Of a stretch of DNA of 53,374 nucleotides, positions 8,583 to 41,860 are shown one piece after another. Source of the stretch: a virus; IMG/VR virus record IMGVR_UViG_3300025009_000019; one strand, written 5' to 3'. Both the position numbers and the translations under genes were made by a program. Positions within the stretch are counted from its first letter, which is position 1. Each line of letters begins with the position of its first letter. The notes below the pieces were generated by a model. That model was given only the letters and a program-made list of their open reading frames with translations. It ran no database searches and was not told the DNA's origin.

Positions 8583-11003
8583 CTAGATTTTTAGTTTCTG
8601 AATATTACGCTCCACTTTATACTTGCTTATAATTGTTTCAACAATAGCTTTATTCGTAGCATCATAATCACGACCCATATAAGCTGGCTTGTTTTCAATT
8701 GATTGCTGTAAATCGTCTAGTTTTTGAATGATTTGTTTATTGCTTTGAAATCGCTCACTTATCATAATTTCTCGGTCTCTTATTTTTTTCTCTTTAACCG
8801 CCGTAGCAATATCATCAAACGCAAAATTATTGCCCAAAGTATTACGAATTTCGGTTGCTGGTTTTTCGGGCATAATCAATTCTTTTTTGTGAATTTTCCA
8901 TAACATACCTCCATCTTTGTCAAGGTCTCCTCCGTCTCCTGTATCAATAGCTCCATCAAGTGCCGACGGTAAAACAGAAATAAAAGCACGTAACAAGGTA
9001 ATATCTTTAATTGTGTTTGTTAGTGCTGACTTCGGGTCTTTATCGGCATTTGCAGAGTATGTTTTAAAAGCCGTCATTGCAAGTTCTATTCTTTGCTGTC
9101 TCTTCAATTCATTTTCTCTTTTTCGTTCTAATTCGGCTTGTTTTTGTATTTCGTAAGCTAAATTTGCCGTTGATGTTTCTGTTTGTTTTTCAGCTAAACT
9201 ACTCAAAAAAGATACTCGTTTTTCGTTTGCTTCAATTTCTTTGTCGATTAACGTAATACGTTTCTCATTTGATTTTTTATAGATTTCGTCAATTACTTCG
9301 ACTGACTTTTGTGCCATTTCTTTGCGATTTTCGATACGCTCTTTTTCTTTTTCCTCTTCGTCGTCTAGTTTTTTAGATGTCTCATCAGCAGTAGCTAAAA
9401 GACTAGCTAAAAAGTTTTCCGTCCAAGTTTTGTTTTTTTCGTCTAATTCTTTTTTCTTTTCTATTGATATCTGAATATCTTGGTCGGTTCTTGATAATAA
9501 ATATTTTGTATTATCTAATTCATCGTTATAATCTTCTAATGCTTTTGTTTGGTCTTTTGTCGCTTTGGTTTCTTTTTCTTTAGAAGCAATCATGTTGTTG
9601 GTATAAACTTCGGCTCTTTTAGTTTTATTTTCGCTTTCTGTTTGAGCGTTAATGTAGTCAACCCATGCTTTAATTGCCGGCTCTACAATCTCATCTGTGC
9701 CTTTTCCGTAAGTGTTTAAAAGATGTGTATATTGTTTAATATGGGTTTGTGTAGCTTTATCTTGATTATAAAATATTTTTAAGTATTTTTCAGAGGCATC
9801 AATTTGCTCTTGCGTAAAATTTTGTAAATTTTTAGTTTGCTGAATAATCAAGGCATTTTGATAGTTTTTAGATTGTTCTCTAATACCGTCCATATCATTG
9901 TACGACTCTGCAAACAACTTAAATTCATGCTCAGTCATACCCATTTTACTTTTAACTTGAAATATAGCAGCTTCGTATGCTTTTTGCTTAACTGCTAAAT
10001 TCTTTTCTAAATAGTCGTTTTCTAGTTTAAGTAATTCGTTACCTATTTCTATACGTTCTTCTTCTGATAATCTTGCATTTCTTAATTTCTTCTCAAGTTT
10101 TGAATATTCCAAATTCTTTTCAGCTTCGGCAATACTTAAAGCATAATTTCGCTCCGTCATTTCGTCCATTAATTGCTCATACTTTTTCCCCTCTTTATAT
10201 GCTTTGCTTAAATTACCGAAGAAATTATCCCAATTACCAGTATTAATGTTCCGTAAAAATGTATCATAAGCAAATGACATCCCGCTCATATTTTCTCGGA
10301 AAAGGTCTCCACTTGTTTGAGTTACGGTAACAAAATCCATAAAACCTTTTTTCAGCATTTCAAAGCCTGCTGTAATTCCGACAAATCCTAATCCTGTTTT
10401 TAATAAATTACCAAAATTAGATAATGCTTTGCCGTAATCACCTACACTCCTTTGATTTTGTCCTACTTGAGCATCAACATCTTTTAACTCTTTATCTAGT
10501 TTTTCAATGCTTTTGCGAAGCTCTGTTGTTCCTTTTTCTGCTCCTTTTCCTGATACTGCTAAATCTTTATATCTATTTCTTAATTCATTTAATAACCTTG
10601 CTTTTTTCTGATATGATCCGATTAATCCGCTTTCTTCCTTTGCAGCTTCTCTATTTACTTTTTTTTGTTCGTTTAATGCTAGTCTGCTTTTTTCAATCTC
10701 AACGGCTAGTTGTGTTTGATTTTTTATTAACTCTTTTTCAAGTTTAATTTTTTCTTTTTCTAGTAAATTTAAAGCCTCAACGCTCGTTTTAGTTTCTCGA
10801 TACCCTTTCTCAATATCTTGCTGACCTTTTAATGTATTTATATTGCTATTATTGACAGCTTTTGATATCTCTGAAATGTCTATTTTAAGCATCTTAGCGA
10901 TGTCGTCAACTGCCTTTAAAGAATTTTTTAACAACTCAAATTCTTTTCTTAGTTGCTCAATTGCACCATCTTCGGCAAGGTCTGTATATTTAATTTTTGC
11001 CAT
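8583..11003 (-). CDS. Tape measure protein
   Basis: 806-aa, highly charged coiled-coil sequence with a hydrophobic patch (GLGFVGITAGFEMLKKGF). It is the longest tail-module gene. Confidence 0.6.
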   Translation of the reverse strand: MAKIKYTDLAEDGAIEQLRKEFELLKNSLKAVDDIAKMLKIDISEISKAVNNSNINTLKGQQDIEKGYRETKTSVEALNLLEKEKIKLEKELIKNQTQLAVEIEKSRLALNEQKKVNREAAKEESGLIGSYQKKARLLNELRNRYKDLAVSGKGAEKGTTELRKSIEKLDKELKDVDAQVGQNQRSVGDYGKALSNFGNLLKTGLGFVGITAGFEMLKKGFMDFVTVTQTSGDLFRENMSGMSFAYDTFLRNINTGNWDNFFGNLSKAYKEGKKYEQLMDEMTERNYALSIAEAEKNLEYSKLEKKLRNARLSEEERIEIGNELLKLENDYLEKNLAVKQKAYEAAIFQVKSKMGMTEHEFKLFAESYNDMDGIREQSKNYQNALIIQQTKNLQNFTQEQIDASEKYLKIFYNQDKATQTHIKQYTHLLNTYGKGTDEIVEPAIKAWVDYINAQTESENKTKRAEVYTNNMIASKEKETKATKDQTKALEDYNDELDNTKYLLSRTDQDIQISIEKKKELDEKNKTWTENFLASLLATADETSKKLDDEEEKEKERIENRKEMAQKSVEVIDEIYKKSNEKRITLIDKEIEANEKRVSFLSSLAEKQTETSTANLAYEIQKQAELERKRENELKRQQRIELAMTAFKTYSANADKDPKSALTNTIKDITLLRAFISVLPSALDGAIDTGDGGDLDKDGGMLWKIHKKELIMPEKPATEIRNTLGNNFAFDDIATAVKEKKIRDREIMISERFQSNKQIIQKLDDLQQSIENKPAYMGRDYDATNKAIVETIISKYKVERNIQKLKI

Positions 11004-17483: not shown

Positions 17484-18623
17484 TTATAATGTTTCTGTCC
17501 ATTTTTTAATTATTTCGTCTGACTTTCTTAAATAGTTTTTTTCTTTTAATTGTTCAGGGGTATAATTCACATTTTCGCCAAATGTCCATTTTTTACTCGT
17601 AATATTTCCTTCCCAATCACATAATAGTATTCTTTTAACTTGATATTTAAAACAATCATCGTCGTTAATATGTTGTAATCTTGTCCACATCCATTTAAAC
17701 ACCTTAGATAATTCAGGGTTAATACTTTCTAATAAAAAATCTCTATATTCTTTCCAATTTTTAAAATTTTGTGGTAGTTTTTTAATAGAATAAATTAAAT
17801 TTTCTTTACCATAAATAGCAGCCGTGTGAACTCCATGTAATCGTTCTTCTAATTTATCGTATGTTTCAGGTTCTAATTCTTGTAAATCAGTTAAACATCT
17901 AAAAGCCTTTTCGTGTATTAAATTAGAAACTCTAAAATATCTTAAATTTCCACCAATCATATACATTTTGTCGTATATTTTATTATACTTAAAATTATTA
18001 TCAATTATATATTTCCAAACATCTGTATATCTCCAGTCAATTAATGGATAAGCTCTATGTGGCTCATTTTTTCGTCTTAACCAAAATAAATTACTATCCT
18101 CACCAAACATTACAAAATTTCTATCTGGGCTTTCTTCTGCTCTTAATCCAATTATTGAAACACTTTTACCTTCTAATTTACGAAGATTTTGACCTACCCA
18201 CAAATTAAATTTATGAAATCTTTTAGGATATTTATTTTCTATTTTGTGAATTGCAATAGGGTGTTTTTCTCTAACCCATTTTTCTTCTTCACCCCAAGCC
18301 CATAAAAATAACTGTTGATGACTTGCTGCGTTTGTCATAAAAATAGCAACTTGATACCATAATGGAATTACATTTGGTTGCGTCATTGCCCATTCCATAA
18401 AATCAATTGTGCCTTGATATTCGGCTTCTTGGTCTTGAAAATAAAGAATAAACTTTCTATTTCTTTTTTTCGCCTCTTCGTTTACTAAATGAAATAATGC
18501 TGTACTATCTTTACCACCTGAAAATGATAAAGAAATATTATCATAATTATCGAATAAAAACGATATTCTTTTTAGAGTTGATTCTAATACATTTTCAATA
18601 CCTCTTATTGATGTTCTTCCCAT
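17484..18623 (-). CDS. PAPS-reductase-family protein, IbrA-like
   Basis: PP-loop motif SFSGGKDST near the N-terminus and a long C-terminal extension. Adjacent to a ParB-like gene. Confidence 0.6.
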   Translation of the reverse strand: MGRTSIRGIENVLESTLKRISFLFDNYDNISLSFSGGKDSTALFHLVNEEAKKRNRKFILYFQDQEAEYQGTIDFMEWAMTQPNVIPLWYQVAIFMTNAASHQQLFLWAWGEEEKWVREKHPIAIHKIENKYPKRFHKFNLWVGQNLRKLEGKSVSIIGLRAEESPDRNFVMFGEDSNLFWLRRKNEPHRAYPLIDWRYTDVWKYIIDNNFKYNKIYDKMYMIGGNLRYFRVSNLIHEKAFRCLTDLQELEPETYDKLEERLHGVHTAAIYGKENLIYSIKKLPQNFKNWKEYRDFLLESINPELSKVFKWMWTRLQHINDDDCFKYQVKRILLCDWEGNITSKKWTFGENVNYTPEQLKEKNYLRKSDEIIKKWTETL

Positions 18624-18991
18624 TTTTTAATATATTGAATTGTTTTACAACATTTATATTCTTTTATTATTTTAGCTCCGTTTTTTAAGTGGTATCCAAT
18701 AGATTTATCTGTAACATTACCTTCTATTATATTAATTCCTAATGACTTAATATAATTAAATCTTTCAACATTTAATTTAGAATATATTCCTTTATTTCTA
18801 TAATCTTTTAAAACAAAACCATTTTTTAAAATAGCTTTATTTTTTAATGTCATTAAACCGCAAAAACCAACAATATTTTTATTAATAAAATATCCAAAAT
18901 ATATATTAGTCGAATTATTAAATATTAATCCAGCTTTTTTTGCTTTTGCTATAATTGGTTCTATTTCCTTATTATTTATTATTTTAATCAT
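18605..18991 (-). CDS. GNAT-family acetyltransferase
   Basis: 128 aa with the acetyl-CoA-pocket-like motif VLKDYRNKGIYSKL. Confidence 0.5.
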   Translation of the reverse strand: MIKIINNKEIEPIIAKAKKAGLIFNNSTNIYFGYFINKNIVGFCGLMTLKNKAILKNGFVLKDYRNKGIYSKLNVERFNYIKSLGINIIEGNVTDKSIGYHLKNGAKIIKEYKCCKTIQYIKKWEEHQ

Positions 18992-19536
18992 ATTTCATCA
19001 TATTTTATATCACTTTCAACTTCAACAATTTGTCGTTCAATTGAGTATGGAACTCCTTTAATTTCTGAAGCAATACCACGTAATCCTATTAATCTTTGAA
19101 CTTCTTCAAGTGTCATTCCAAGTTCTTTCATAATTTTTAATTCATCCCAACCATCTTTTAACATTACGACTAAAGATGCTTGCAATTCTACTTCATGTTT
19201 TCCTCTTGCTCTATTATGGCGAATTGTTGAAGCCATTCTATCGCTTAAATCTTTTAATATTACTGAAACTGGCATACATCCGTTTTCTCTATCGAAAATA
19301 TCTTTATGTTTTATCATAATTAAGTGTCTATGATAACCATCAACAAGAATATATTTATCTCTTTCTTTATCATAAAAACAGACAATCGGCATAGTATAAC
19401 CATCACATTTAATACTTTGGTATAATAAATCCATTTCTCTTTTGGCTACGTGATTTGGATTGTAATCATTAGCCTCAATTTTTTCTAATGGTACAGCAAT
19501 TACATTGTATACCGGACTTCTAAAAATTTCTTTCAT
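18988..19536 (-). CDS. ParB/sulfiredoxin-like nuclease-domain protein, IbrB-like
   Basis: Motifs VDGYHRH and TIRHNRARGKH. Translationally coupled to the neighbouring genes. Confidence 0.55.
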   Translation of the reverse strand: MKEIFRSPVYNVIAVPLEKIEANDYNPNHVAKREMDLLYQSIKCDGYTMPIVCFYDKERDKYILVDGYHRHLIMIKHKDIFDRENGCMPVSVILKDLSDRMASTIRHNRARGKHEVELQASLVVMLKDGWDELKIMKELGMTLEEVQRLIGLRGIASEIKGVPYSIERQIVEVESDIKYDEI

Positions 19537-20717
19537 AATATTTCTTTTAATTGTTGCGATGTTTTACTTTTAAAATATTCTAATAATTTTGATTTTCTGT
19601 CGATATTATCATTTATTAATTTTTCTAATCCTATGTTTCCTGTTAAATCATAAAAAATACAATCTTGCTTTTGACCTGTGCGAAAAATACGCCTTTCTAC
19701 TTGCTCACGTTGAGCATAATCCCACGTTTTATCCCAAAAAATAATAACATTATTATCTTGTAAATTTAATCCAAAACTATGCTTTTGCAAACTCATAATC
19801 TTAATATCTTTGTAATATTTTTTTAATGTATTTTGCGTATCAATATATTTTGCATAAATAAGTATTTTTGACTTATCTAATGTTTCAATTAATTTATCAA
19901 CAATAGTAAATTTATCAGGACTTAATGAATAATTATGTTGCATTTTTTGAGTGATTTCTAAAAATATATTATTATTTTTTGCCATTAAAACTTCATTATC
20001 TAAATACTTATTTTTTAGATTATTGTGTTCTTGAATTTCTTCATCTGATAAATTATAATTAATATTTATGTGTTGCTGTCCAATACTTAAAGATAACTTG
20101 CTTTCAAAAATAAACGGTTCAATTAACGAATATAAATAATCAATATTGTGATATTGTTTGATAAATTCTTTAATTATTTTTCCACCTTGTTTAATTTGAA
20201 TATACTCGCAAAAAGTGTTTTTAAATTCTGCGAAAGACATATTTAATATTTTCGGACTTAAAAAATAAATCTGCGAATATAAATCAAGTAAATTTTTGCT
20301 TAGTGGAGTTCCGTTTAGAATTAGTCTAAATTTAGATAGTTTAGATATTTCAATCATTCTCTTTGTCCTTTTTGCATCTGAATTTTTAATCTTTAAACTT
20401 TCGTCAATTATAACAAATGAATTTTCTGATTTTTCTAACTTTTTTAATATTTCTAAATAAATTCTATCTGAATTTTGGATGCTTTCTATTCCGATAATTT
20501 CACAATCTAAACCACCCCACTTATTTAATTCTTTTAATAAATTTTCTTTCGTTTGAAAAGGAGTAAACCATATGATTAAATCAGTTTCGGTGTTTTTTAT
20601 TAATTCTAATGATGAAAGTGTTTTTCCGGTTCCAGCATCCATAAATAACGCACCGCATTTTACGCTTTTTAGCTTATCTATTGCCTTAGATTGACTATTT
20701 AAAAAGACTTTCGTCAT
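19533..20717 (-). CDS. SNF2-family helicase-like ATPase
   Basis: Walker A DAGTGKT, IIDESLKIKN, and the SNF2 motif III-like LILNGTPLSKNLLDLYSQIYFLSP. Confidence 0.6.
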   Translation of the reverse strand: MTKVFLNSQSKAIDKLKSVKCGALFMDAGTGKTLSSLELIKNTETDLIIWFTPFQTKENLLKELNKWGGLDCEIIGIESIQNSDRIYLEILKKLEKSENSFVIIDESLKIKNSDAKRTKRMIEISKLSKFRLILNGTPLSKNLLDLYSQIYFLSPKILNMSFAEFKNTFCEYIQIKQGGKIIKEFIKQYHNIDYLYSLIEPFIFESKLSLSIGQQHININYNLSDEEIQEHNNLKNKYLDNEVLMAKNNNIFLEITQKMQHNYSLSPDKFTIVDKLIETLDKSKILIYAKYIDTQNTLKKYYKDIKIMSLQKHSFGLNLQDNNVIIFWDKTWDYAQREQVERRIFRTGQKQDCIFYDLTGNIGLEKLINDNIDRKSKLLEYFKSKTSQQLKEIL

Positions 20718-22400: not shown

Positions 22401-22544
22401 TTTAGAGTTGAAATTTGTATGTGATCAGCTTCTTTAAATTGCCACTTTAATTGTACCGTCTTCGTTATTTTAAATTCCACTTACGAACATTATGTTATTG
22501 ATTATTAATTATATGATGTTTGGTAACCATTCGGCAACCAACTT

Positions 22545-22590
22545 GTTATAAGCAAGGCAAAGACACTCCGAATAAACGTCCGTGCCAAAC
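22545..22590 (-). ncRNA. Structured element, family A copy 1: 31-nt hairpin (22556-22586) followed by the box GCTTATAAC
   Basis: Minus sense: GGCACGGACGUUUAUUCGGAGUGUCUUUGCC-UUGCUUAUAAC. It is near-identical to 40900-40930 and related to 33880-33925. The stem needs G-U pairs in the minus sense. Confidence 0.5.
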
Positions 22591-22595
22591 TTAAA

Positions 22596-23276
22596 TTAGT
22601 CGTTATAAGTTGACCATTCAGTTTCAATATTTCCCAAATCACATTCAATAGTACAACCCATTGCATATAATTTGAAAAGAAATAAATCAAACCCCCTTAA
22701 TCCTATTTCAGTTATAGGATGCAATGCAGCTCCTTCGATTGTTGGAGAATATAAGCTTTTTGATTTCCCGTCAATCATTAATTTATACCTGCACTGGTAT
22801 CTGTGCGTTTTCTTTTCCGCGCTTTCATCAAATGCTATATGAATAGTGCCATAATCTGAAACTTCATGGATAAAGGCAATTTCTCCGCTTTCACCGTATT
22901 CGTCAGGTATTACTTCCTCTTCTTTATATTTTTCAATAATTTCAGAAAGTTTCCATTCTTTCTTTTCTAAAGCACCAACAAAGTTTTTAATCATTTCTTT
23001 AGCTGGTGCAATTCCGATTTCAACAACACTTTTGTTTAATTCAAATTCTACTAAATCGGTAAGCGTTTTTGAATACTGAACAAAATCGAGTTTTTCAAAA
23101 CCTTCAATTATTTTAGCATTCAATTTTTCTTTGAACGACTTATTTACATCGCTCCAACTTGAAAGGGAATCATTTATAATTCCATTAATAAAACCAGTAA
23201 CTTGTTTTGTTACAATTTCATCAAGTTTACCGTTTTCGGTAAGTTCTTTAATTTTGTCACTAATCAATTTTTCCAT
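22596..23276 (-). CDS. Hypothetical protein, bracketed by the 10-bp inverted repeat GTTATAAGCA/TGCTTATAAC
   Basis: 226-aa ORF. The repeat arms are at 22545-22554 and 23324-23333. Confidence 0.55.
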   Translation of the reverse strand: MEKLISDKIKELTENGKLDEIVTKQVTGFINGIINDSLSSWSDVNKSFKEKLNAKIIEGFEKLDFVQYSKTLTDLVEFELNKSVVEIGIAPAKEMIKNFVGALEKKEWKLSEIIEKYKEEEVIPDEYGESGEIAFIHEVSDYGTIHIAFDESAEKKTHRYQCRYKLMIDGKSKSLYSPTIEGAALHPITEIGLRGFDLFLFKLYAMGCTIECDLGNIETEWSTYND

Positions 23277-23320
23277 TTTTTTTAAGTGTTTATGTATTAA
23301 TAATTTGACTGATAATTAAA

Positions 23321-23460
23321 CCCTGCTTATAACTTCGGCTAACCCGGCAAGTCAGGCAACCGTGGTTTCCGATCGGTGCAGCCCGTGTTAACTTTCGCTC
23401 TGATAGGAAAGTGAATCGCTTCGCACCCTGCCCTGCGTGTAGCCTTTAATGTTAGGCTTC
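23321..23460 (-). ncRNA. GC-enriched structured intergenic element (E2)
   Basis: Minus sense starts GAAGCCUAAC and ends GUUAUAAGC. Contains local hairpins AGCCU-N8-AGGCU and CGG-GUUAG-CCG. Shares GGCAGGG...CCUAUCAG with element 38662-38797. Confidence 0.45.
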
Positions 23461-23463
23461 ATG

Positions 23464-23640: not shown

Positions 23641-23739
23641 TTTCTTTATGCTATTAGTTTAATAATCTGAAACAAAGCACGAAACGCCAATACTCAACCG
23701 TTACCATAAAACTACACACAATTTCACAATCATTCAAAT

Positions 23740-28984: not shown

Positions 28985-29382
28985 TTTACTTCTCCAAAAT
29001 AACAAACGCCTCCACCATATAAGCATATCTTTGGAAATTCATCTTTGTACCATTCGTTGTGTTTTGACAATAAATCATCATCATCATATATGTCTGACAT
29101 TGTTATTGTTATTCCATGGTCTTCTCTATAGTTTTCAATAAAATCTTCATCATAAATTTCCCCTATTTCTTCTAACAAATAATTCTGGACCTCCTCTAAC
29201 ACTTGATTCTCGTCTCTTTTCCATCTTTGGTTGTCGACATAAGCCAAGAAACCTTGCTTAAAGCCATTTATCTGCCCATTGTAGAAAAATTCAATCAGTT
29301 GTTTGCCATTTCCGAATTTTTTTTCAACTAAATGAAATTCGTATCCTTGTTTCTTTTCGATGTATTTTTCAGCTTTATTCAT
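28981..29382 (-). CDS. Acidic hypothetical protein
   Basis: 133-aa ORF. Confidence 0.45.
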   Translation of the reverse strand: MNKAEKYIEKKQGYEFHLVEKKFGNGKQLIEFFYNGQINGFKQGFLAYVDNQRWKRDENQVLEEVQNYLLEEIGEIYDEDFIENYREDHGITITMSDIYDDDDLLSKHNEWYKDEFPKICLYGGGVCYFGEVK

Positions 29383-29983: not shown

Positions 29984-30278
29984 TTGTTTGTTTTAAATCT
30001 AAAATTCTCAATCCTAGAGTGTAAGATTTATAGTTGATTTCATCTTCATTTTTTGAGTTATCGTCTTGCCATCGCAATATCTGATTTTTCGGCTGGCGAG
30101 TATTAATATCTAACACAATATCAGGCATATTAAAATAGTATGTTTCATTAAACGAGGCACAGCTCCCGACATCGTCTCCAATCCAAAAATCAAAGTCTAA
30201 ATCATGTTTATAAGCGAATCTCGCAACATACTCATTACATAGGTTTTCGTACTGTTTTTTAAGTTCATTTAGCTTCAT
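29970..30278 (-). CDS. Hypothetical protein
   Basis: 102-aa ORF. Confidence 0.45.
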   Translation of the reverse strand: MKLNELKKQYENLCNEYVARFAYKHDLDFDFWIGDDVGSCASFNETYYFNMPDIVLDINTRQPKNQILRWQDDNSKNEDEINYKSYTLGLRILDLKQTNGNE

Positions 30279-33836: not shown

Positions 33837-33879
33837 TGATACTGAATTGTTTATGACTTGGTAAACTTTCAACAACCAA

Positions 33880-34071
33880 CTTGTTAGGCACAAGCGGGTA
33901 CGATAAACGACCGTAGATAATTTTGCTGCAAAAAGACAAGAAAATGGAAACAGCCGACCCACAAAACAGCACATTTGCAAACCGCTCCAGCCGACACAAA
34001 ACCAAAGTTTGCAAAAGAGCTGTTTTCTTGCCGACGCACCCAAGCCCACCCACCACCCTATTGGATGACAA
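33880..34071 (-). ncRNA. Non-coding structured region E3: family-A-like hairpin plus box (33880-33925) and a G/U-rich (minus sense) element colinear with 38093-38237
   Basis: CTTGTTAGGCAC (33880-91) is the reverse complement of 38238-49. The 8-mers AGCACATT, CAAAACCA and AAAGAGCT occur in the same order as in E4. Confidence 0.45.
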
Positions 34072-34121
34072 GTTGAAAGACTGTTAATAAATTTTTGATA
34101 ATAGATACTTTTTATTTATAG

Positions 34122-34156
34122 GGACATATTATATTTGGACAATATTTGTCAGGACT
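34122..34156 (+). promoter_or_regulatory. Candidate C-box operator and -7 box upstream of the controller gene
   Basis: GGACATATTATATTTGGACAATATTTGTCAGGAC contains repeated GGACA, the inverted GACA-N5-TGTC, and TATATTTG (34130-37) matching TAnnTTTG. Confidence 0.35.
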
Positions 34157-34164
34157 AAAATGTT

Positions 34165-34479
34165 ATGATACAAAAAGAATCTTTTGGAGAGTTAATTAGA
34201 AAACTTAGGGAAGGTGAGGGACTTCCTCTTAGGAAAGTTGCAGCCCAGCTTGACATTGACCCATCGACACTTGGGAAAATAGAAAGAAATGAACGAACTG
34301 CGAATAAAGAAATGATTGAAAAATTGGGTGAAATTTTTTCAATAGACTCAGAACAACTACTAATCTCATTTTTGAGTGACAAAGTTGCTTTTGAATTAAT
34401 GAAAGAAGACTGTGCTAATGATGTCCTAAAGGTTGCAGAAGAGAAGGTTAAGTATTTTAAGAAGACAACTAAAATCTAA
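34165..34479 (+). CDS. XRE-family HTH controller (C) protein of the R-M island
   Basis: LRKVAAQLDIDPSTLGKIERNER is a classic HTH. It is the first gene of the only plus-strand operon. Confidence 0.6.
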   Translation: MIQKESFGELIRKLREGEGLPLRKVAAQLDIDPSTLGKIERNERTANKEMIEKLGEIFSIDSEQLLISFLSDKVAFELMKEDCANDVLKVAEEKVKYFKKTTKI

Positions 34480-34494
34480 TAGGTTCGAGTAAAA

Positions 34495-36831
34495 ATGACA
34501 GTAAAAGAAAAATCATATATTCTACAAGAAGAAGCTCCACAATTAATGGTTTCCGACCAACAATTGGAATTGTTTCGTGATTTGGAATTAGCAAAATACA
34601 ACGATAGTGATTTATATAACGGCAAATCTAAAAATAAATTAAATGTAGTTTCTCTATTTACTGGTGCTGGTGGGTTAGACATAGGTTTTAAAGAAGCAGG
34701 GTTTAACTGTGTATTTGCATCTGATATTATGCCTCAAGCAGAGACTACTTACAATTATAATTTTCCATCAACACCTTTCGTAAGAAAAGACGTCAGGTTG
34801 CTTTCTAAGGAAGAAATAGAGAATTTGATTGGTAAAAACAAAATTGATGTGCTAATTGGTGGACCTCCTTGTCAAGGTTTCTCAAATATGGGGAATAAAA
34901 ATTCATCAGACCCTAGAAATTATCTGTTTGAAAATTATGTGAAGATTGTGGAGACAATACAACCCAAATGTTTTCTTTTTGAAAATGTGAAAGGATTATT
35001 TACAATGTTTGAAGGTCGTTTTTTTGATAAAGTCGTAAATGCATTTTTAGAAATTGGTTATAATGTTTCTTACTCTATGATTGATTCGTCTAAATATGGC
35101 GTACCTCAAAAAAGGGAGAGGATAATAATTTTCGGTACTAAGATTAATAGGTCATTTAGATTCCCTAAACCAAATTCAAAATCATTTGGTAGAATAAGTG
35201 CCTTTTCAAATGTTGGTGAAGCTATAAACGATTTAATGCAACTAGAAAATAGATACCCAAATCATGTTCCATTAAATCACAATGAAATAGTTGTTCAAAG
35301 ATATAAACTTATCCCAGAAGGTGGAAAATTGCCAAAACCTGAGGAACTTCCTGAAGAAATTAGAAGGAAAAATTTTGGAAATACATACACAAGATTAAAC
35401 AGAAAGGAAGTCTCATCAACAATAGTTCCTGGCAATAATGCTTTACCTGTTCATCCAGTTTTAAATAGGAGTTTGACAGCTCGTGAAGCTGCAAGAATTC
35501 AAACGTTTCCTGATTATTTTATTTTTAGAGGGGATAGACGTTCCCAATGTATTCTTGTTGGTAATGCTGTGCCTCCATTACTTGCAGCCAAGTTGGCAGA
35601 ATGCGTTGCAAATTTTATTAATGAAATTGAATATGATGGAATAAGTCCTGATGGTCAAGCAAAAGTTGGCACTAAATTTTCTCGTCATAAAGTTAACACA
35701 GTAAAGAAAAATGGGCGTGCAAATTTAAAATTCGCTGATTTATTTAGTGGTGTTGGTGGTTTTACGCAAGGCTTAGAAGCTGCTGGACTTGAATGTGTTT
35801 TAGGTGCAGATTTTGATGAATATGCTGTTGAAGCATATCGTAGAAACCATTCTTCCCATGAATGTTTGAAAATAGACCTAGCTGACCCTAAAAATCAAAA
35901 GATAGTAGCTGATAGGTTGAAAAAAGAAAAAGTTGATTTAATAGTTGGAGGGCCTCCTTGTCAAGGATTTTCTATTTTTGGGAAAAGACGATTTGTAAAC
36001 ACAAAGAATCATGATTTAAAAAAAGACAAAAGAAACGATTTGGTGTTTGCATTTGCAAATATTGTAATAAGGTCAAATGCAAACTGGTTTATTATGGAAA
36101 ATGTTCCAGGTATTCTTTCAGCACATAGTGGTTCTTATGTTGAGGAAGTAAGAAATTATTTTTTAAAACATAAATATAAAACGGAAATAAAAATCATAAA
36201 TGCAGCAGATTATGGTGTTCCTCAGTTGAGAAAGCGCTTTATTTTGTTTGGTACTAAGACAGACCTCATGATTCCATTTCCAAAACCAAAATATTTTGAA
36301 ACACCTGAATCATGGCAACTGCCATACAGAACAGTTGGTGAAGTTTTAACTGACTTATCTAACGAAAAAACATTAGGCAAATATCAAAATCATTTTGCAC
36401 CAAACCATTCTCCAATAATTGTGGAAAGATTTTCATACATAAAAGAAGGACAAAAATTGGAAATTGAATCTTTACCAGAACACTTGAAGAATGGTACTAA
36501 GACTGGCAAACCAATGGCAAACTACAGTCATGTTTTTAAACGTTTACATAGGAAAAAACCTGCTGGCACTATTGTTCCTGGTCATAATGCATTCCCTGTT
36601 CATCCAACATTAAATAGAACTTTAACTGTGAGGGAAGCTGCAAGAATTCAAACGTTTCCAGATAATTATGAATTTGTTGGTCCAATAATAAATCAATGTT
36701 TACAAGTAGGTAATGCTTTCCCTTGTTTAGTCGCTCAAATTTTTGGGGAAAGGCTTAGAACAGTAATAAATAAAGAATGGAGTGAAGAAAGTGCGACTCA
36801 TTTAGCTAAATACTCAATGTTAGAAAAATAA
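34495..36831 (+). CDS. Fused double C5-cytosine DNA methyltransferase (two complete Dcm-like domains)
   Basis: Domain 1: FTGAGGLDIGF, GGPPCQGFS, FENVKGL, QKRERIIIFG, GNAVPP. Domain 2: FSGVGGFTQGL, GGPPCQGFS, MENVPGI, QLRKRFILFG, GNAFPC. Confidence 0.85.
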   Translation: MTVKEKSYILQEEAPQLMVSDQQLELFRDLELAKYNDSDLYNGKSKNKLNVVSLFTGAGGLDIGFKEAGFNCVFASDIMPQAETTYNYNFPSTPFVRKDVRLLSKEEIENLIGKNKIDVLIGGPPCQGFSNMGNKNSSDPRNYLFENYVKIVETIQPKCFLFENVKGLFTMFEGRFFDKVVNAFLEIGYNVSYSMIDSSKYGVPQKRERIIIFGTKINRSFRFPKPNSKSFGRISAFSNVGEAINDLMQLENRYPNHVPLNHNEIVVQRYKLIPEGGKLPKPEELPEEIRRKNFGNTYTRLNRKEVSSTIVPGNNALPVHPVLNRSLTAREAARIQTFPDYFIFRGDRRSQCILVGNAVPPLLAAKLAECVANFINEIEYDGISPDGQAKVGTKFSRHKVNTVKKNGRANLKFADLFSGVGGFTQGLEAAGLECVLGADFDEYAVEAYRRNHSSHECLKIDLADPKNQKIVADRLKKEKVDLIVGGPPCQGFSIFGKRRFVNTKNHDLKKDKRNDLVFAFANIVIRSNANWFIMENVPGILSAHSGSYVEEVRNYFLKHKYKTEIKIINAADYGVPQLRKRFILFGTKTDLMIPFPKPKYFETPESWQLPYRTVGEVLTDLSNEKTLGKYQNHFAPNHSPIIVERFSYIKEGQKLEIESLPEHLKNGTKTGKPMANYSHVFKRLHRKKPAGTIVPGHNAFPVHPTLNRTLTVREAARIQTFPDNYEFVGPIINQCLQVGNAFPCLVAQIFGERLRTVINKEWSEESATHLAKYSMLEK

Positions 36832-36835
36832 TATT

Positions 36836-38092
36836 ATGTCAGTAAATCATCATCTTCTTGCAAAAGCAACAACTGATTCAGTTTTAGCAAATTTTAAATC
36901 AGGTGCATGGAAATGTTGCACAGATGTAGGTTTAGATTTTTATAGAGTTGGTTGTGATAGCAGTTTCCCTTCTCCTGATGCAGCCTTCTACGATGATGCA
37001 AAAAAGTTAATGGTAACATTTGAGTTCAAGCCACCCACAGAAACTAAAAGAGGTATTTTGACGGGGTTGGGTCAATCTATTGCATATTTAAATAGTAGCA
37101 ACTTGTCATACCTTATTGTGCCACAAACATTAGAGGATTATGATATTGGTGGCTACATGACAAATTTATATCAAAACCAAATTGAAGAAAGTCTACCAGT
37201 CGGTTTAATTGTTTATGAGAACAATGCACCAACAAAAGTTTCGCTTATTCATAATGTAAATACTCTAACTAAAACAAAGGAATTTAAAGCTATAGCAAGT
37301 GGTAGGTTTTGGGCAAAACACTTAGATATGCCAATACCTTTATTTCATTTAATTCTCCATTGCTATTATTTAAAAAAAATAGGCCAAATTACTGGCGATG
37401 CATTTGCTTATTGTTGGGAAACATATTTAGTTCCAAATAGTGTTTTAAAAACATTAACTCCAACTGCAATTAAGGATATGAATGGAGATTTCATTGAAAC
37501 TTTGTCTGGAAGAAAGAATATTATCTTTTTTGAGAAGAAAATAGCAGCACTTAAAAAGTTATCTGGAGCAACTAAAGGAAAGGCTATAGCAGACTTACGA
37601 CAAGATGCTGATACATCATTTATTGGAGATAATTATTACAATTCTATTAAGAAAAATTTTGTTACATTTTTAAAACATATTGGAGTAGTTGATTCAATTG
37701 GTCATTTAACAGAGGAGGGTTTTAAACTTTATCATTTAGGCTTAGTTAATGGTCCAAACAGTAAAATATTCCAAGACTACTTTACACAAACGGTTTTAAT
37801 TACTGGTCACCATTTAGATTTGATTTTTGATTTGGACAACTTATGTAATCAATTCAGGGGCAAATATGAGATTATGAAAATCAGAGAAATAATGCTGGAA
37901 GATTATGAGGCGAGAGGAATGATTAAAAGAAATCCAAATAGAAAAGCTGGTGATGAAAGTAAGGTTGAGTTTCTAAAATATGAATTTATTTTATGGAATT
38001 CATTAAATTTAACAGTAAAGACAAATGGTACACCTGATGTTTCTTTTAATTGGAAAAAAATAACAGAAGTTTGTTCTATGCCTGATTTATAA
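36836..38092 (+). CDS. Restriction endonuclease candidate (N-terminal PD-ExK motif)
   Basis: SPDAAFYDDAKKLMVTFEFKPP gives D...ExK. It starts 4 nt downstream of the methyltransferase stop. Confidence 0.5.
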   Translation: MSVNHHLLAKATTDSVLANFKSGAWKCCTDVGLDFYRVGCDSSFPSPDAAFYDDAKKLMVTFEFKPPTETKRGILTGLGQSIAYLNSSNLSYLIVPQTLEDYDIGGYMTNLYQNQIEESLPVGLIVYENNAPTKVSLIHNVNTLTKTKEFKAIASGRFWAKHLDMPIPLFHLILHCYYLKKIGQITGDAFAYCWETYLVPNSVLKTLTPTAIKDMNGDFIETLSGRKNIIFFEKKIAALKKLSGATKGKAIADLRQDADTSFIGDNYYNSIKKNFVTFLKHIGVVDSIGHLTEEGFKLYHLGLVNGPNSKIFQDYFTQTVLITGHHLDLIFDLDNLCNQFRGKYEIMKIREIMLEDYEARGMIKRNPNRKAGDESKVEFLKYEFILWNSLNLTVKTNGTPDVSFNWKKITEVCSMPDL

Positions 38093-38237
38093 GCCCACGC
38101 TTCGTAGTCAAGCACATTGGCTGGTCGCACAAAAATCCAACACGCGACCAAAACCAGCCAAAGAGCTTGCCTACCCAAACGCACGTGGAAACATTGCAGC
38201 AAATTGACAGATAAAATGATAAAAATAAAAATCGCCA
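38093..38237 (-). ncRNA. Non-coding structured region E4, colinear with part of E3
   Basis: Hairpin GGTCGC-N15-GCGACC nested in CTGG/CCAG. Shares ordered 8-mers with 33968-34021. An AT-rich tract at 38195-38235 follows the E5 stem in the minus sense, giving a terminator-like U-run. Confidence 0.4.
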
Positions 38238-38375
38238 GTGCCTAACAAGCGGTCATAAAACATTGGGGGTTAAGTGGTTAATCGAGCGTTCTACCTCGCA
38301 TCAAGGTTCGGTATCGGGGGATACATTCGCAGCTCCGAAAACCCCAACGTTTCATACCGCCGTCCGTTATAGGCA
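38238..38375 (-). ncRNA. Structured RNA candidate E5, homolog of E7
   Basis: 19-bp closing stem 38249-68 / 38342-60 has two G-U pairs and one bulge in the minus sense (A-C mismatches in the plus sense). Outer boxes are TGCCTATAAC (minus sense, 38375-66) and GTTAGGCA. Inner hairpin GUAUC-CCCC-GAUAC. A roughly 60-nt core is conserved with 40046-40179. Confidence 0.55.
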
Positions 38376-38645
38376 ATACGGTTTGGTGCATTTAATAAAC
38401 TTTGGTTTTTTGTTCAAATAAATGAATTCGTTCCACCAACCAGTACAAGGTAATATCCAATATTGAAAACTATACCATTGGTAGGTTTTTGTTTTCCCCC
38501 CAGTTCCTCTTGATGCTATATTACCATCTGCCATTAAATCGAAACTATGTAATGTATAGTTTTCAATTCGCTTCTCAGTACATTTTGTAAGTCGAACAAA
38601 AAACCACTGAAAGAAAAATACGTTTACTGCTTTTAATTTAGTCAT
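38367..38645 (-). CDS. Hypothetical 92-aa protein, exactly bracketed by the 10-bp inverted repeat GTTATAGGCA/TGCCTATAAC
   Basis: The stop codon lies inside the box at 38366-75. The partner box at 38662-71 lies 16 nt upstream of the ATG. Confidence 0.45.
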   Translation of the reverse strand: MTKLKAVNVFFFQWFFVRLTKCTEKRIENYTLHSFDLMADGNIASRGTGGKTKTYQWYSFQYWILPCTGWWNEFIYLNKKPKFIKCTKPYCL

Positions 38646-38661
38646 ATCGTTAAAATTGCAC

Positions 38662-38797
38662 TGCCTATAACAACAAATATAAAACAGCAGGGCAGTATTA
38701 CTGAATTATAATGTGTGCTACTATTCATCATTTGTGGTCGGCTGATAGGGTTTTGCACTTAATCCCTGCCGTTTCATATTTGCAGCCGTTACCTGCA
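38662..38797 (-). ncRNA. Structured RNA candidate E6
   Basis: 18-bp stem 38675-92 / 38764-81 is perfect in the minus sense with two G-U pairs. The 5' box is TGCAGGTAAC (minus sense) and the 3' box GTTATAGGCA. Confidence 0.55.
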
Positions 38798-38819
38798 AGT
38801 GTAAGAAACTGCACAGCCA

Positions 38820-40004
38820 TTAATGAGCCTTGAAATTATAGAGTGGTTTAATCACTCCGATAATATCAACGGTTTCAGTAATTGCAGATTTAATTTCATC
38901 AATTGATTTATAAGCCTGTGGAGCTTCATCCAAAGTTTCAGTAACAACCGAAGTTGTATAAACATCTTTCATTGTTTCAACAAAATCAGCCATATTAATA
39001 GCTTCTTTTGCTTTGCTTCGGCTCATTAATCTACCTGCTCCATGAGGTGCTGAATAGTTCCAGTTTTCATTTCCTTTGCCAATACACAATAAAGAACCAT
39101 CACGCATATTAATTGGAATAAGCAATGTTTCCCCATTTTCAGCAGAAACCGCACCTTTTCTCAAAATCATGCGTTTAAAATCAATGTAGTTGTGTATTGT
39201 TTCAAATCGTTCAGCTTCTTGCAAACCAGCTTCTTTTAAAATAATTTCAGCCATTGTTTCACGGTTCAAAGTCGCAAATTTTTGAACAATAGCCATATCA
39301 TTCATATAGTCGGCAAAGTTATTACCAGTTAAAAAGGCTAAATCCTTATCGGTTACAGGCTTTTTAATCTTCTTAATTTCGGCTGCAATTTCTTTTTCTC
39401 TACCTTCTGCTTTTAGTTTGTCAATTGCATTTTTAACAACTTTGCTCATTTCATTGGCATTTTGAAAGGCTTTATCTTGGTAATACTTACAAGTATCACC
39501 GCCTAATTTTCGGCTTCCTGAATGTATAATCAAATACAGTTCGCCAGTTATTTCATGTTTGCCGACTTCAATAAAATGGTTTCCACCACCAAGCGAACCA
39601 ATTGAAAGCACTGCACGGCTTAAATTAACGTGTTTTTCACAGCGTAAATTTGTAAAGTCGAAATCTTTCTTTGATTTTTCGTGAACACTAAAACCACAAG
39701 GCACTTTAGTTTTAATTACTTCGTCCAGTTTTTCAAAGTCAATTTCTTTGTTTTTGAGCTTAATTGTAAGCATTCCGCAACCAATATCAACACCTACCAA
39801 ATTTGGAGTTACTTTGTCGGTTATAGTTATTGTTGTACCAACTGTACAACCTTTACCAGCGTGTGCATCAGGCATAATTCGCACATTTGCATTTTCATAC
39901 GCTTCAAAGTTTACCAGTTTTTTAATTTGGTCATACGCTTCAAATTCAAATGTTTCAGCGAATATTAGCGTTTCAATTCCTTTGTTATTTTTAATCGTTT
40001 TCAT
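38820..40004 (-). CDS. rtcB: RNA 3'-phosphate/2',3'-cyclic-phosphate to 5'-OH ligase RtcB
   Basis: Motifs DAHAGKGCTVGTT, GGGNHFIE, HSGSRKLG and PHGAGR in a 394-aa protein. Confidence 0.85.
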   Translation of the reverse strand: MKTIKNNKGIETLIFAETFEFEAYDQIKKLVNFEAYENANVRIMPDAHAGKGCTVGTTITITDKVTPNLVGVDIGCGMLTIKLKNKEIDFEKLDEVIKTKVPCGFSVHEKSKKDFDFTNLRCEKHVNLSRAVLSIGSLGGGNHFIEVGKHEITGELYLIIHSGSRKLGGDTCKYYQDKAFQNANEMSKVVKNAIDKLKAEGREKEIAAEIKKIKKPVTDKDLAFLTGNNFADYMNDMAIVQKFATLNRETMAEIILKEAGLQEAERFETIHNYIDFKRMILRKGAVSAENGETLLIPINMRDGSLLCIGKGNENWNYSAPHGAGRLMSRSKAKEAINMADFVETMKDVYTTSVVTETLDEAPQAYKSIDEIKSAITETVDIIGVIKPLYNFKAH

Positions 40005-40045
40005 ATCGTAAAATTAAGAATATTAATAAATTAGTACAAACACCA

Positions 40046-40179
40046 GCAGGTAACACAAGCTATAACCAATAAAGGTTTTAGTGGTTAATCAAACGTTGTA
40101 GCTCGCATCCAGTTCGGTATCGGTTGATAGTGCATCGCTCCGTAATCCTTTACTGGTAATAGCCACAAACGTTACCTGC
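40046..40179 (-). ncRNA. Structured RNA candidate E7, homolog of E5, immediately upstream of rtcB
   Basis: Self-closing 9-bp boxes GCAGGTAAC / GTTACCTGC (40046-54 / 40171-79). 17-bp stem 40059-75 / 40147-63 with one G-U and one U-U in the minus sense. Conserved core CGGAGC..UAUC-NNCC-GAUACCGAAC..GAUGCGAG..GAUUAACCACU. Confidence 0.55.
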
Positions 40180-40182
40180 AAT

Positions 40183-40476
40183 TTATTTTACCCCACGCTC
40201 CTTCTGCATTTGTTCCAGTCGTTCTTGAAATCGGCTTTTCTTGCCTACCTCTGTAAAGTTTTTAATTTCGCTCTTGTTTTTAACTGCGAACACAGCACTT
40301 GCAATAAACATCAATAGTGCTACTCCTGCACATATTAAAATCATCCAAACGCTCCACCAATTAAAAACTTTGTCCTTCACCAAGTAGAGTATAAATTCTA
40401 CTATCGCCCAAATTGATGATGCTACTGCTCCTAAGTAGGCAAGAAAAGCCGTTACTCCTGTTAATATTGTTTTCAT
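40183..40476 (-). CDS. 97-aa membrane protein (three hydrophobic segments)
   Basis: Hydrophobic segments GVTAFLAYLGAVASSIWAIVEFILYLV and WMILICAGVALLMFIASAVFAV. Confidence 0.5.
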   Translation of the reverse strand: MKTILTGVTAFLAYLGAVASSIWAIVEFILYLVKDKVFNWWSVWMILICAGVALLMFIASAVFAVKNKSEIKNFTEVGKKSRFQERLEQMQKERGVK

Positions 40477-40517
40477 TTTTAAATTTGTTTAATGCCTCCC
40501 TTAGTAAAATAAACTGA

Positions 40518-40620
40518 CAGGTAACAAGGGCTTGGCAAAATGCCACCAATCAGCTTTGTGCCTTGAATTTTATCGGTTGCTTGGTGGCACTATCGCCAAG
40601 CCCCGTCCGTTATAGCCAAT
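40518..40620 (-). ncRNA. Structured RNA candidate E8
   Basis: Nested perfect stems GGGCTTGGC/GCCAAGCCC (40528-36 / 40595-603) and TGCCACCAA/TTGGTGGCA (40541-49 / 40581-89). Shares the 13-mer CCGTCCGTTATAG (40603-15) with E5 (38360-72). Confidence 0.55.
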
Positions 40621-40868: not shown

Positions 40869-40873
40869 TTATT

Positions 40874-40943
40874 GGTTATAGCTTCATCGTTAGTAGCAAG
40901 GCAAAGACGCTCCGATTGAACGTCCGTGCCAAGCATTTAGATT
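40874..40943 (-). ncRNA. Structured element, family A copy 3 (hairpin 40900-40930) plus TAAC-type boxes
   Basis: Minus sense GGCACGGACGUUCAAUCGGAGCGUCUUUGCC-UUGCUACUAAC. Differs from copy 1 by a C/U change that keeps a pair (G-C versus G-U). Confidence 0.5.
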
Positions 40944-41066
40944 TTAGTCTGTGATAATTGACAATTGTCCACAGGCTGCGCCATTTTCAATCTCACTTTG
41001 AGTTGCTACGGCAACGGCAAAATCATAGCCGTTTTCTTCTAATTGACTTTTAATTTGTTCAGTCAT
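40944..41066 (-). CDS. Possible 40-aa ORF (MTEQIKSQLEENGYDFAVAV...)
   Basis: Hand translation. Starts 11 nt after the radical-SAM stop. Confidence 0.25.
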   Translation of the reverse strand: MTEQIKSQLEENGYDFAVAVATQSEIENGAACGQLSIITD

Positions 41067-41077
41067 TGCTTTATGTA

Positions 41078-41860
41078 TTAAATTAAATTAATTCCCTCTA
41101 CTACTCCACTTCCAAGCCCATTCTTTTCAGAAGTAGTATTCGGGTTTATTGGGCTTATTTTTATGAAAAATTTATCTTTATCAAAATGTTGTTTAATCTT
41201 TTTAATATCAAAGTCTTTTTCTTCTACCAGCGTTAAGTTTATGGTAGTTTTCAAATTGCTTTCGGTTCTTACATTTCCAAGTTGCTCAATGGTCATTTTG
41301 TTTTTGAATGGTATTAGCCAATTCCTATGCTCTTCATCCAAGCTATGCAAAGAAAGTTGCAGCGTCAGATTGTCTTTTATCCAAGTAAAATCAGCATCTT
41401 TCAAACCAATAGTTGAAATATAGTGGTGTGTATTTGGGTAGTGTTGGCTTATTTTTTCAATTGCCTTTTTTACGTTTTCAATATTTAAAAACGGTTCTCC
41501 CATTCGGGTATAGTTTATTTTAAACTCTTTACTATCCAATGGGTTTATGTTGTTTTTAGCAATTATAAACTCAACTTGGGTTGTAATTTCTTGCCAAGTC
41601 AAATTACGCCAACTTTTCATTTGTCCAGTTGCACAAAATTTGCATCTTACAGGGCATCCACTCATTACGCTTACTCCAACCATCCAGCGTTCCGAACGGT
41701 CGCTTAATTCGTAATTGTCTAGCATATTTTGCTTTCTACCTATTGCATCTTTTGTATAGTAAGGTAAAAAAGTATCGGTAGTTTCAATTAACATTCCGTC
41801 CTCTAATTCGAGGCAATAAACGCTACCGTTTTTAAAGTTCTTTTGTTTTTTAATTTTCAT
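41078..41860 (-). CDS. RlmN/Cfr-like radical-SAM enzyme, short form lacking both methyl-transfer cysteines
   Basis: The cluster SGCPVRCKFCATGQ and the motifs MGEPFLN, ISTIG, LQLSLHS and IKISPINP parallel RlmN GCALECKFC, MGMGEPLLN, LSTSG, LAISLHA and INLIPWNP. The C118-equivalent is Gly/Val, and the protein ends before the C355 region. Confidence 0.6.
   Translation of the reverse strand: MKIKKQKNFKNGSVYCLELEDGMLIETTDTFLPYYTKDAIGRKQNMLDNYELSDRSERWMVGVSVMSGCPVRCKFCATGQMKSWRNLTWQEITTQVEFIIAKNNINPLDSKEFKINYTRMGEPFLNIENVKKAIEKISQHYPNTHHYISTIGLKDADFTWIKDNLTLQLSLHSLDEEHRNWLIPFKNKMTIEQLGNVRTESNLKTTINLTLVEEKDFDIKKIKQHFDKDKFFIKISPINPNTTSEKNGLGSGVVEGINLI

Follow-up and report, generated by a model that had tools for sequence, protein, structure and literature searches.

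The locus studied here raises the question of what two homologous, structured elements of about 135 nucleotides (nt) represent in the neighbourhood of the gene for the RNA ligase RtcB. It lies in the virus record IMGVR_UViG_3300025009_000019, a stretch of 53,374 nt (the window, meaning throughout that whole stretch), and the two elements, E5 and E7, had been picked out in an earlier note made from the letters alone, which took them for functional noncoding RNAs (ncRNAs) possibly connected to the ligase. We find that they belong to a family of hairpins whose terminal boxes are complementary across the genes, and conclude that they are probably recombination sites of the attC type, in arrays resembling clusters of attC sites lacking integron-integrases (CALIN), within a ~53-kb genome of a probably virulent Bacteroidota phage. 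RtcB is one cargo cassette among several and has no specific link to the hairpins.

A family of hairpins on the gene strand

Both elements were found where the earlier note had located them, on the minus (gene-sense) strand, and the closing stems quoted for them do pair. The same strand carries most of the window genes, rtcB (38820–40004) included. That the two elements flank rtcB is true of E7, which is 5' of the gene; directly 3' of it stands a third, more divergent element, E6, and E5 follows beyond the next gene. Together with a shorter hairpin one gene upstream (E8) and a copy in a second small array, 15 kb away from rtcB, there are at least five related elements in the genome (Table 1). 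Every copy follows the same plan, namely a box ending in ...TAAC, 3–7 unpaired nt, a long stem, a loop region, the returning stem, 0–4 unpaired nt and a box beginning with GTTA...; in all elements inspected the spacer is asymmetric, with 3–7 nt on one arm and 0–4 nt on the other. No bulged base was seen in E6 and E7, and E5 has a single bulged G on the 3' arm of its long stem (GCGGTATGAAACGTTGGGG/CCCCAATGTTTTATGACCGC, loop region of 73 nt).

Folded as single strands, E5 and E7 have z-scores of −3.5 and −3.3, and none of 200 shuffles was equally stable. Their interiors (71–73 nt) are 75% identical (55/73), in agreement with the conserved core described earlier, and the stem arms keep their pairing with an identity of only 53–55%. 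The UAUC-NNCC-GAUA hairpin that had been assigned to this core occurs in E5 and E7 only; the family at large keeps its CTRTC half and not the partner.

A family covariance model was trained on E5, E6, E7 and four metagenomic relatives, and the family alignment comprises 18 sequences, all of which (18/18) contain the TAAC and the GTTA. The elements range from 62 to 142 nt and fold as imperfect inverted-repeat hairpins, with 92% of the long-stem cells in the alignment paired and compensatory changes in 13 of the 16 long-stem pairs. The covariation score of 0.53, compared to 0.04–0.13 in slid controls, was reached by none of 500 shuffles. Other features kept across the family are the loop-region motifs GG-AYTRCG-RAG, CTRTC and ACCAC and the inner stem TATGAAA/TTTTATA with a fixed G.T pair (near-invariant, 16/17 sequences). 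For 21 of 24 members the gene-sense strand is the more stable one, with a mean difference of 2.4 kcal/mol. The homology and stem covariation claimed for E5 and E7 are therefore well founded, the elements are strand-specific, and the covariation is real and reflects a DNA hairpin. No T-run follows the stems. As had been argued before, the elements are not simple terminators.

Just as no ribozyme, tRNA or Y-RNA consensus had been recognized by eye, searches of the elements against Rfam (at gathering and at permissive thresholds) and with ARAGORN gave no match, and exact-motif scans of the E5/E7 core in IMG/VR and GTDB genomes returned chance matches only, in coding regions of unrelated and mostly high-GC organisms. 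The family is specific, its model having 0 matches in 982 kb of unrelated phage loci; 80 relative loci anchored on the endolysin, too distant for synteny, served as this negative control.

Boxes, gene units and array ends

The feature that we consider decisive lies in the boxes, of ~10 nt each. Comparing the 3' box of one element with the 5' box of the next one, 6.4 out of 8 variable positions match on average (12 junctions in six genomes), compared to 2.7/8 for the two boxes of one and the same hairpin. Pairs that are not adjacent match at 3.0/8, with just 0.3% of them attaining at least 7. The 3' box of E6 (GTTATAGGCA) is the exact complement of the 5' box of E5 (TGCCTATAAC), 300 nt away across ORF92 (open reading frame, ORF, 92), and the 3' box of E8 matches the 5' box of E7 and not that of E8 itself. 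Each gene unit thus has private inverted ends of the form GTTxxxxxxx...xxxxxxxAAC, and boxes which are complementary across the genes, not across the hairpins, are the hallmark of integron gene cassettes.

The same numbers bear on whether the hairpins could be small non-autonomous mobile palindromes that insert between genes, similar to miniature inverted-repeat transposable elements (MITE) or repetitive extragenic palindromes (REP). There are several copies per genome, and the same hairpin body, with 92% identity over 130 nt, sits between unrelated genes in two metagenomic contigs (L116 and L117); such palindromes would explain both observations. They would not account for boxes that are unrelated within a hairpin but complementary across a gene, and we saw no direct target-site duplications and no HUH or RAYT-type transposase among the ORFs scanned, which makes this origin very unlikely.

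Both arrays of the window terminate on a common sequence, AAGTTGGTTG..., without any hairpin after the last box, and the 12-mer AACAAGTTGGTT has only two occurrences in the window, each immediately following the final box of an array. This shared terminal site looks like an attI-like landing site. Read on the plus strand it runs CAACCAACTTG|TTA, followed by cassettes each closed by a hairpin, a layout like that of cassettes behind an attI site. The first cassette of the larger array (33883–38246) has its genes on the plus strand, the canonical orientation, and the other cassettes are reversed. The genes of this large unit occupy 34165–38092, the sole plus-strand block in the region, and encode a helix-turn-helix regulator (104 amino acids, aa), a 778-aa fusion of a C5-cytosine methyltransferase with a second methyltransferase, and a 418-aa protein without detectable family. 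It is probably a restriction-modification-type cassette, its layout resembling that of a controller-methylase-endonuclease system, here carried by a phage. Another ORF near the landing site (427 aa) is not PcfJ-like.

Table 1. Hairpins, gene units and array ends in the window (bit scores and E-values are those of the family model).
Feature	Position	Strand	Boxes	Remarks
E5	38235–38376	−	5' TGCCTATAAC, 3' GTTAGGCAC	attC-like hairpin; 110.7 bits, in training set
E6	38659–38798	−	5' GCAGGTAAC, 3' GTTATAGGCA	attC-like hairpin directly 3' of rtcB
E7	40043–40181	−	GCAGGTAAC and GTTACCTGC	attC-like hairpin 5' of rtcB; 135.4 bits, in training set
E8	40514–40619	−	5' GGCTATAAC, 3' GTTACCTGT	shorter attC-like hairpin; 17 bits, E 0.08, outside training set
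Fifth member	23322–23461	−	5' AGCCTAAC, 3' GTTATAAGCA	second small array; 32.3 bits, E 5e-5, outside training set
E9	40870–40945	−	TGCTACTAAC	degenerate junction; short hairpin GGCACGGACG...CGTCTTTGCC; 17-nt stretch
rtcB gene unit	38788–40054	−	GTTACCTGC...GCAGGTAAC	inverted boxes
ORF92 gene unit	38366–38671	−	GTTATAGGCA...TGCCTATAAC	10/10 complementary
ORF97 gene unit	40171–40525	−	GTTACCTGT...GCAGGTAAC	small membrane protein
226-aa protein gene unit	22545–23333	−	GTTATAAGCA...TGCTTATAAC	phrog_2600; 10/10 complementary
Large unit	33883–38246	+	GTTAGGCAC...GTGCCTAAC	opposite gene orientation
Array 1 end	33847–33891	−	last box GTGCCTAAC	then AAGTTGGTTGTTGAAAGTTTACCAA; no hairpin after
Array 2 end	22510–22554	−	last box TGCTTATAAC	then AAGTTGGTTGCCGAATGGTTACCAA; no hairpin after; second copy of terminal site

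A few sequences in and around the arrays may be remnants of junctions. Just upstream of ORF82, a 17-nt stretch (40870–40886) has exactly the reverse-complement sequence of a portion of the E7 3' arm (TTATTGGTTATAGCTTG) and would pair with this arm better than E7's own 5' arm does, which suggests a past rearrangement between junctions. A hairpin of ~45 nt (GGCACGGACGTT.A.TCGGAG.GTCTTTGCCTTGCT) is present twice on the minus strand, at 22555–22590 and 40890–40935, in both cases just ahead of a terminal ...TAAC box; a terminator and a degenerate junction are both conceivable. Finally, 23673–23720 (−) reads GGTAACGGTTGAGTATTGGCG... and resembles a family 5' box and 5' arm whose remainder is missing, probably a decayed junction of the small second array.

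The rtcB unit and its changing hairpins

For E5 and E7 the earlier note had suggested a functional tie to RtcB, as stable ncRNAs that would be a substrate of the ligase, a guide for it, or a self-processing or circularised RNA. The position of E7, 40 nt upstream of rtcB, the 75%-identical interiors and the covarying stems fit such a role, and the absence of an Rfam match is compatible with a new RNA. The distribution of the elements largely refutes it. Very many close relatives of this RtcB exist, and homologs of 70–93% identity lack a neighbouring family element, whether they are encoded by other phages, by very large phage-like contigs or by a Bacteroidota chromosome. Copies of rtcB that are 97–98% identical still differ in their hairpin bodies, the family also flanks methyltransferases and unrelated ORFs, its fifth copy in the window is far from rtcB, and the UAUC...GAUA hairpin is not kept. 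Since RtcB homologs occur without the element and the element occurs with unrelated genes, we see no functional link between them, and the RNA hypothesis appears most improbable.

A comparison of the contigs closest to the window shows what does change around the gene. Those with a 92–98% aa-identical RtcB bear family hairpins upstream of it, with a different body in each of the contexts found (the window, L104/L115, L116/L119, L117 and L141). At the DNA level the rtcB unit is 92–94% identical, and in the window, L104, L116, L117 and L141 it is accompanied by unlike hairpins on both sides. A 42-nt leader and the boxes GTTACCTGC...GCAGGTAAC remain essentially unchanged in four of the five contexts; the most distant one, L141, differs in both. 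Downstream of rtcB, similarity between contigs ends right after CACTTGCAGGTAAC(G), and L116 and L119 have the hairpin plus rtcB in common and diverge from the 5' box on. In short, homology between contigs breaks exactly at the TAAC/GTTA boxes. At least five junction contexts contain the same rtcB unit, and several come from a single series of samples (Ga0172379-81), which suggests ongoing shuffling and not relics.

Some other observations were made on rtcB and its relatives. The leader at 40005–40045 (−), GTGTTTGTACTAATTTATTAATATTCTTAATTTTACGATATG, is almost invariant between the window, L104, L116 and L117, and holds a TTTG with TAATTTTA ~20 nt further on, by eye similar to a Bacteroidetes −33/−7 promoter, so that each gene unit may have its own promoter. 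Two Logan contigs from independent assemblies (L006 and L007) begin inside E7, at element position 102, which indicates that the repeated junction hairpins break short-read assembly graphs; many close relatives of rtcB are located on contigs of just 1–5 kb. In another phage (L098), a sequence of ~45 nt (AGCATATTATTGTTATAGAGTAAAATAAAAG.AAATAACATATG; 7950–8000 and 9195–9245) precedes both rtcB and the next gene and represents a different kind of repeated intergenic module. One RtcB relative (P0064, 82% identity over 81% of the query), on a 289-kb contig, has 688 aa and contains an intein-splicing domain (PF14890). Homologs of ORF92 (50–80% identity) in a Bacteroidota chromosome and another phage had no elements in their context.

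Relation to phage attC sites and possible cassette exchange

The covariance-model search proposed in the earlier note recovered further arrays in metagenomic phage contigs and copies in two cultured Polaribacter phages. There are four elements in L116, five in L117 and two each in L121 and L141, at a spacing of 370–900 nt and always on the gene strand, and their neighbours include DNA methyltransferases and unrelated small ORFs. In Polaribacter phage P12002L (L168) the model matches six intergenic sites, four of which flank methyltransferase or Mom-like genes, and one of these matches (30000–30063) is the published site P12002L_attC1, called as attC by HattCI (PMC9892861). By eye, the second element of L121 has about the same sequence and also precedes a methyltransferase. 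In Polaribacter phage Danklef_1, family hairpins stand on both sides of the adenine methyltransferase gp56, whose boundaries are GTTACCTGTA...TACAGGTAAC. The spacer motifs TAACG... (5') and ...TTGTTA (3') agree with those on the bottom strands of five attC sites that have been validated by experiment (PMC9892861). Clusters of attC sites without integrase have already been published in virulent phages (Qi et al., 2023, PMC9892861), and the E5/E7 family would be a distinct form of them. The earlier note had allowed for a known family with an unrelated role, and this is in effect where the elements fall, the kind being attC. As a separate observation, the body of the published P12002L_attC2 is present twice in P12002L (29215–29243 and 37241–37269), immediately behind the box that ends a gene unit, that of the methyltransferase gp35 in one case and of the Mom-like gp53 in the other, and in an orientation opposite to that of the E5/E7 family.

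The likeness to attC sites and CALIN, those of phages included (PMC9892861), comprises imperfect hairpins of 62–142 nt whose outer boxes are AAC...GTT and which contain an unpaired spacer, a long inner stem and a terminal region that varies. It extends to the presence of one hairpin for each gene, boxes that are complementary across the cassette, methyltransferases as cargo and the absence of an integrase in virulent phages. Unlike them, the E5/E7 family has family-wide loop motifs and a conserved inner stem with its fixed G.T pair, hairpins exchanged on both sides of a gene, and what looks like a landing site in the phage itself.

Sedentary chromosomal integrons offer another term of comparison. 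In the repeats of Vibrio cholerae, for example, attC sites of ~120–130 nt are homologous over their full length with unrelated genes in between, and the arrays lie beside intI and attI on the chromosome of the bacterium, most of their genes being on the top strand. The E5/E7 family shares with these the whole-length homology among sites and the unrelated genes between them, so that the conserved core is explained without an RNA function. It differs from V. cholerae-type arrays in being located in phage genomes, in a phylum where integrons are rare.

A different explanation is that the hairpins act in cis on polycistronic mRNA (processing, stability or insulation) and are shuffled only by homologous recombination of the phage (RecE/RecT-like, NinB), with the conserved boxes as short homology arms. 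T4-type phages provide a precedent: their promoter-stem-loop "mobile regulatory cassettes", the subject of work by Arbiol and co-workers in 2010, reportedly flank small accessory ORFs and mediate modular shuffling, and are said to do so by homologous recombination between identical promoter-containing repeats. Like the E5/E7 family, these are repeated stem-loops around small accessory ORFs in plastic regions of virulent phages; unlike it, they are not known to have private inverted boxes for each gene or a crossover logic based on AAC/GTT. An mRNA role would be in keeping with the strand-specific (gene-sense) structure, its conserved G.U-type pairs and its location inside transcribed intergenic spacers; a RecE-like exonuclease and NinB are encoded by the window phage and RecT by L116, and symmetric homologous exchange would explain the different hairpins on both sides of the same gene unit. 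However, homologous exchange through shared sequence does not create private 10-nt inverted boxes for each gene unit. The breaks at AAC/GTT triplets, the shared landing sequence at the end of both arrays, the stems without a T-run after them and the independent attC call by HattCI for one family member also argue against it. We therefore regard cis-acting mRNA hairpins as an unlikely explanation.

If the elements are attC-type sites, a crossover within the box would open a circular cassette, whose hairpin is closed by its own two boxes, and the opened cassette would enter the array; the private inverted ends would be what remains of this. Each hairpin would belong to the gene downstream, and each array would start at the attI-like site. 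The gene-sense (minus) strand would be the counterpart of the bottom strand, the recombinogenic one, in classical attC sites, given the spacer motifs, the hairpin-rtcB link of L116 and L119 and the shared hairpin-less array ends. We rejected the opposite assignment, with the gene strand as the attC top strand: it would leave the last gene unit of each array without a hairpin, L116 and L119 tie the hairpin to the downstream gene, and the spacers match bottom strands. Cutting and joining would be the work of a site-specific recombinase not visibly encoded by the phage, which could be an integron-type integrase of the host or an unrecognised enzyme.

Several points weigh against the attC interpretation. 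No integrase or tyrosine recombinase was detected among the window ORFs scanned (Pfam, PHROGs and NCBIfam, plus PDB sequence searches of the large unknown ORFs), nor in the short metagenomic contigs, and there is no complete integron, the genes next to the attI-like sites having no recombinase domain. A model built from five validated attC sites, of proteobacterial type, gave no match to E5–E8 and only noise in the window, although this is a tiny model in which one sequence type is dominant; conversely, the family model did not score the validated attC sites of phage TJE1. These negative cross-scores leave attC membership unproven at the profile level. In the E5/E7 family the bottom-like strand carries the genes, opposite to what is usual for cassettes (e.g., in phage TJE1), and many boxes (GTTACCT or GTTATAG) break the strict GTTRRRY consensus, which GTTAGGC fits. 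The same rtcB unit with different hairpins on both sides is not predicted by the classical model, in which each attC has a single crossover point; either recombination uses both boxes, as is plausible with few bulged bases, or homologous exchange via the shared boxes adds to the process. In experiments with IntI1 in Escherichia coli, P12002L_attC1, the one family member assayed in the literature, was the single phage site that gave no recombinants; five other phage attC sites did (PMC9892861). Integrons are, in addition, rare in Bacteroidetes (PMC9024848). Our preference for attC-type sites is expressed with these points in mind. A more far-reaching possibility is that Bacteroidota phages own an integron-like platform, with a landing site in the backbone, private coding-strand hairpins that keep conserved loop motifs and a phage- or host-encoded recombinase not recognisable as an integron integrase, through which virulent phages would trade counter-defence genes (methyltransferases, RtcB and restriction-modification modules, for example) in the course of infection; we put it forward tentatively, as a rather doubtful extension.

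The genome that carries the arrays is nearly complete and has ~30% G+C. It encodes portal, large terminase, HK97-type capsid, endolysin and primase-helicase besides the RecE-like exonuclease and NinB, and circularly permuted assemblies of 53.3–53.4 kb are present in three public samples. The host is probably a member of the Bacteroidota, given that the closest capsids are those of Polaribacter and Cellulophaga phages (37% identity). The cargo of the arrays (RtcB, an RlmN/Cfr-like radical S-adenosylmethionine (SAM) enzyme, methyltransferases and small proteins) looks like a set of accessory or counter-defence genes. When the array was compared with GenBank phages by BLAST, matches were confined to rtcB and a radical SAM gene. 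The radical SAM protein of the window (260 aa, 41078–41860, −) has its best matches among RlmN/Cfr RNA methyltransferases, under their cut-offs, and its gene has a DNA-level match in a crAss-like Bacteroides phage and is followed by a 40-aa ORF (40944–41066, −). One array thus contains two RNA-directed enzymes, this protein and RtcB. Elsewhere in the window, a block at 17484–20717 (−) with a PAPS-reductase/DUF3440 protein, a ParB-like nuclease and an SNF2-family helicase may represent a module for DNA modification or anti-defence.

A false lead is removed by these results, in that there is no RtcB-specific RNA here. What is gained is a searchable model for the boundaries of phage cassettes and a reason why assemblies break at these repeats, and the concrete question raised is which enzyme recombines the sites. 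If the sites are active, virulent Bacteroidota phages would be swapping accessory and counter-defence genes as discrete cassettes, and this in a phylum that is poor in integrons.

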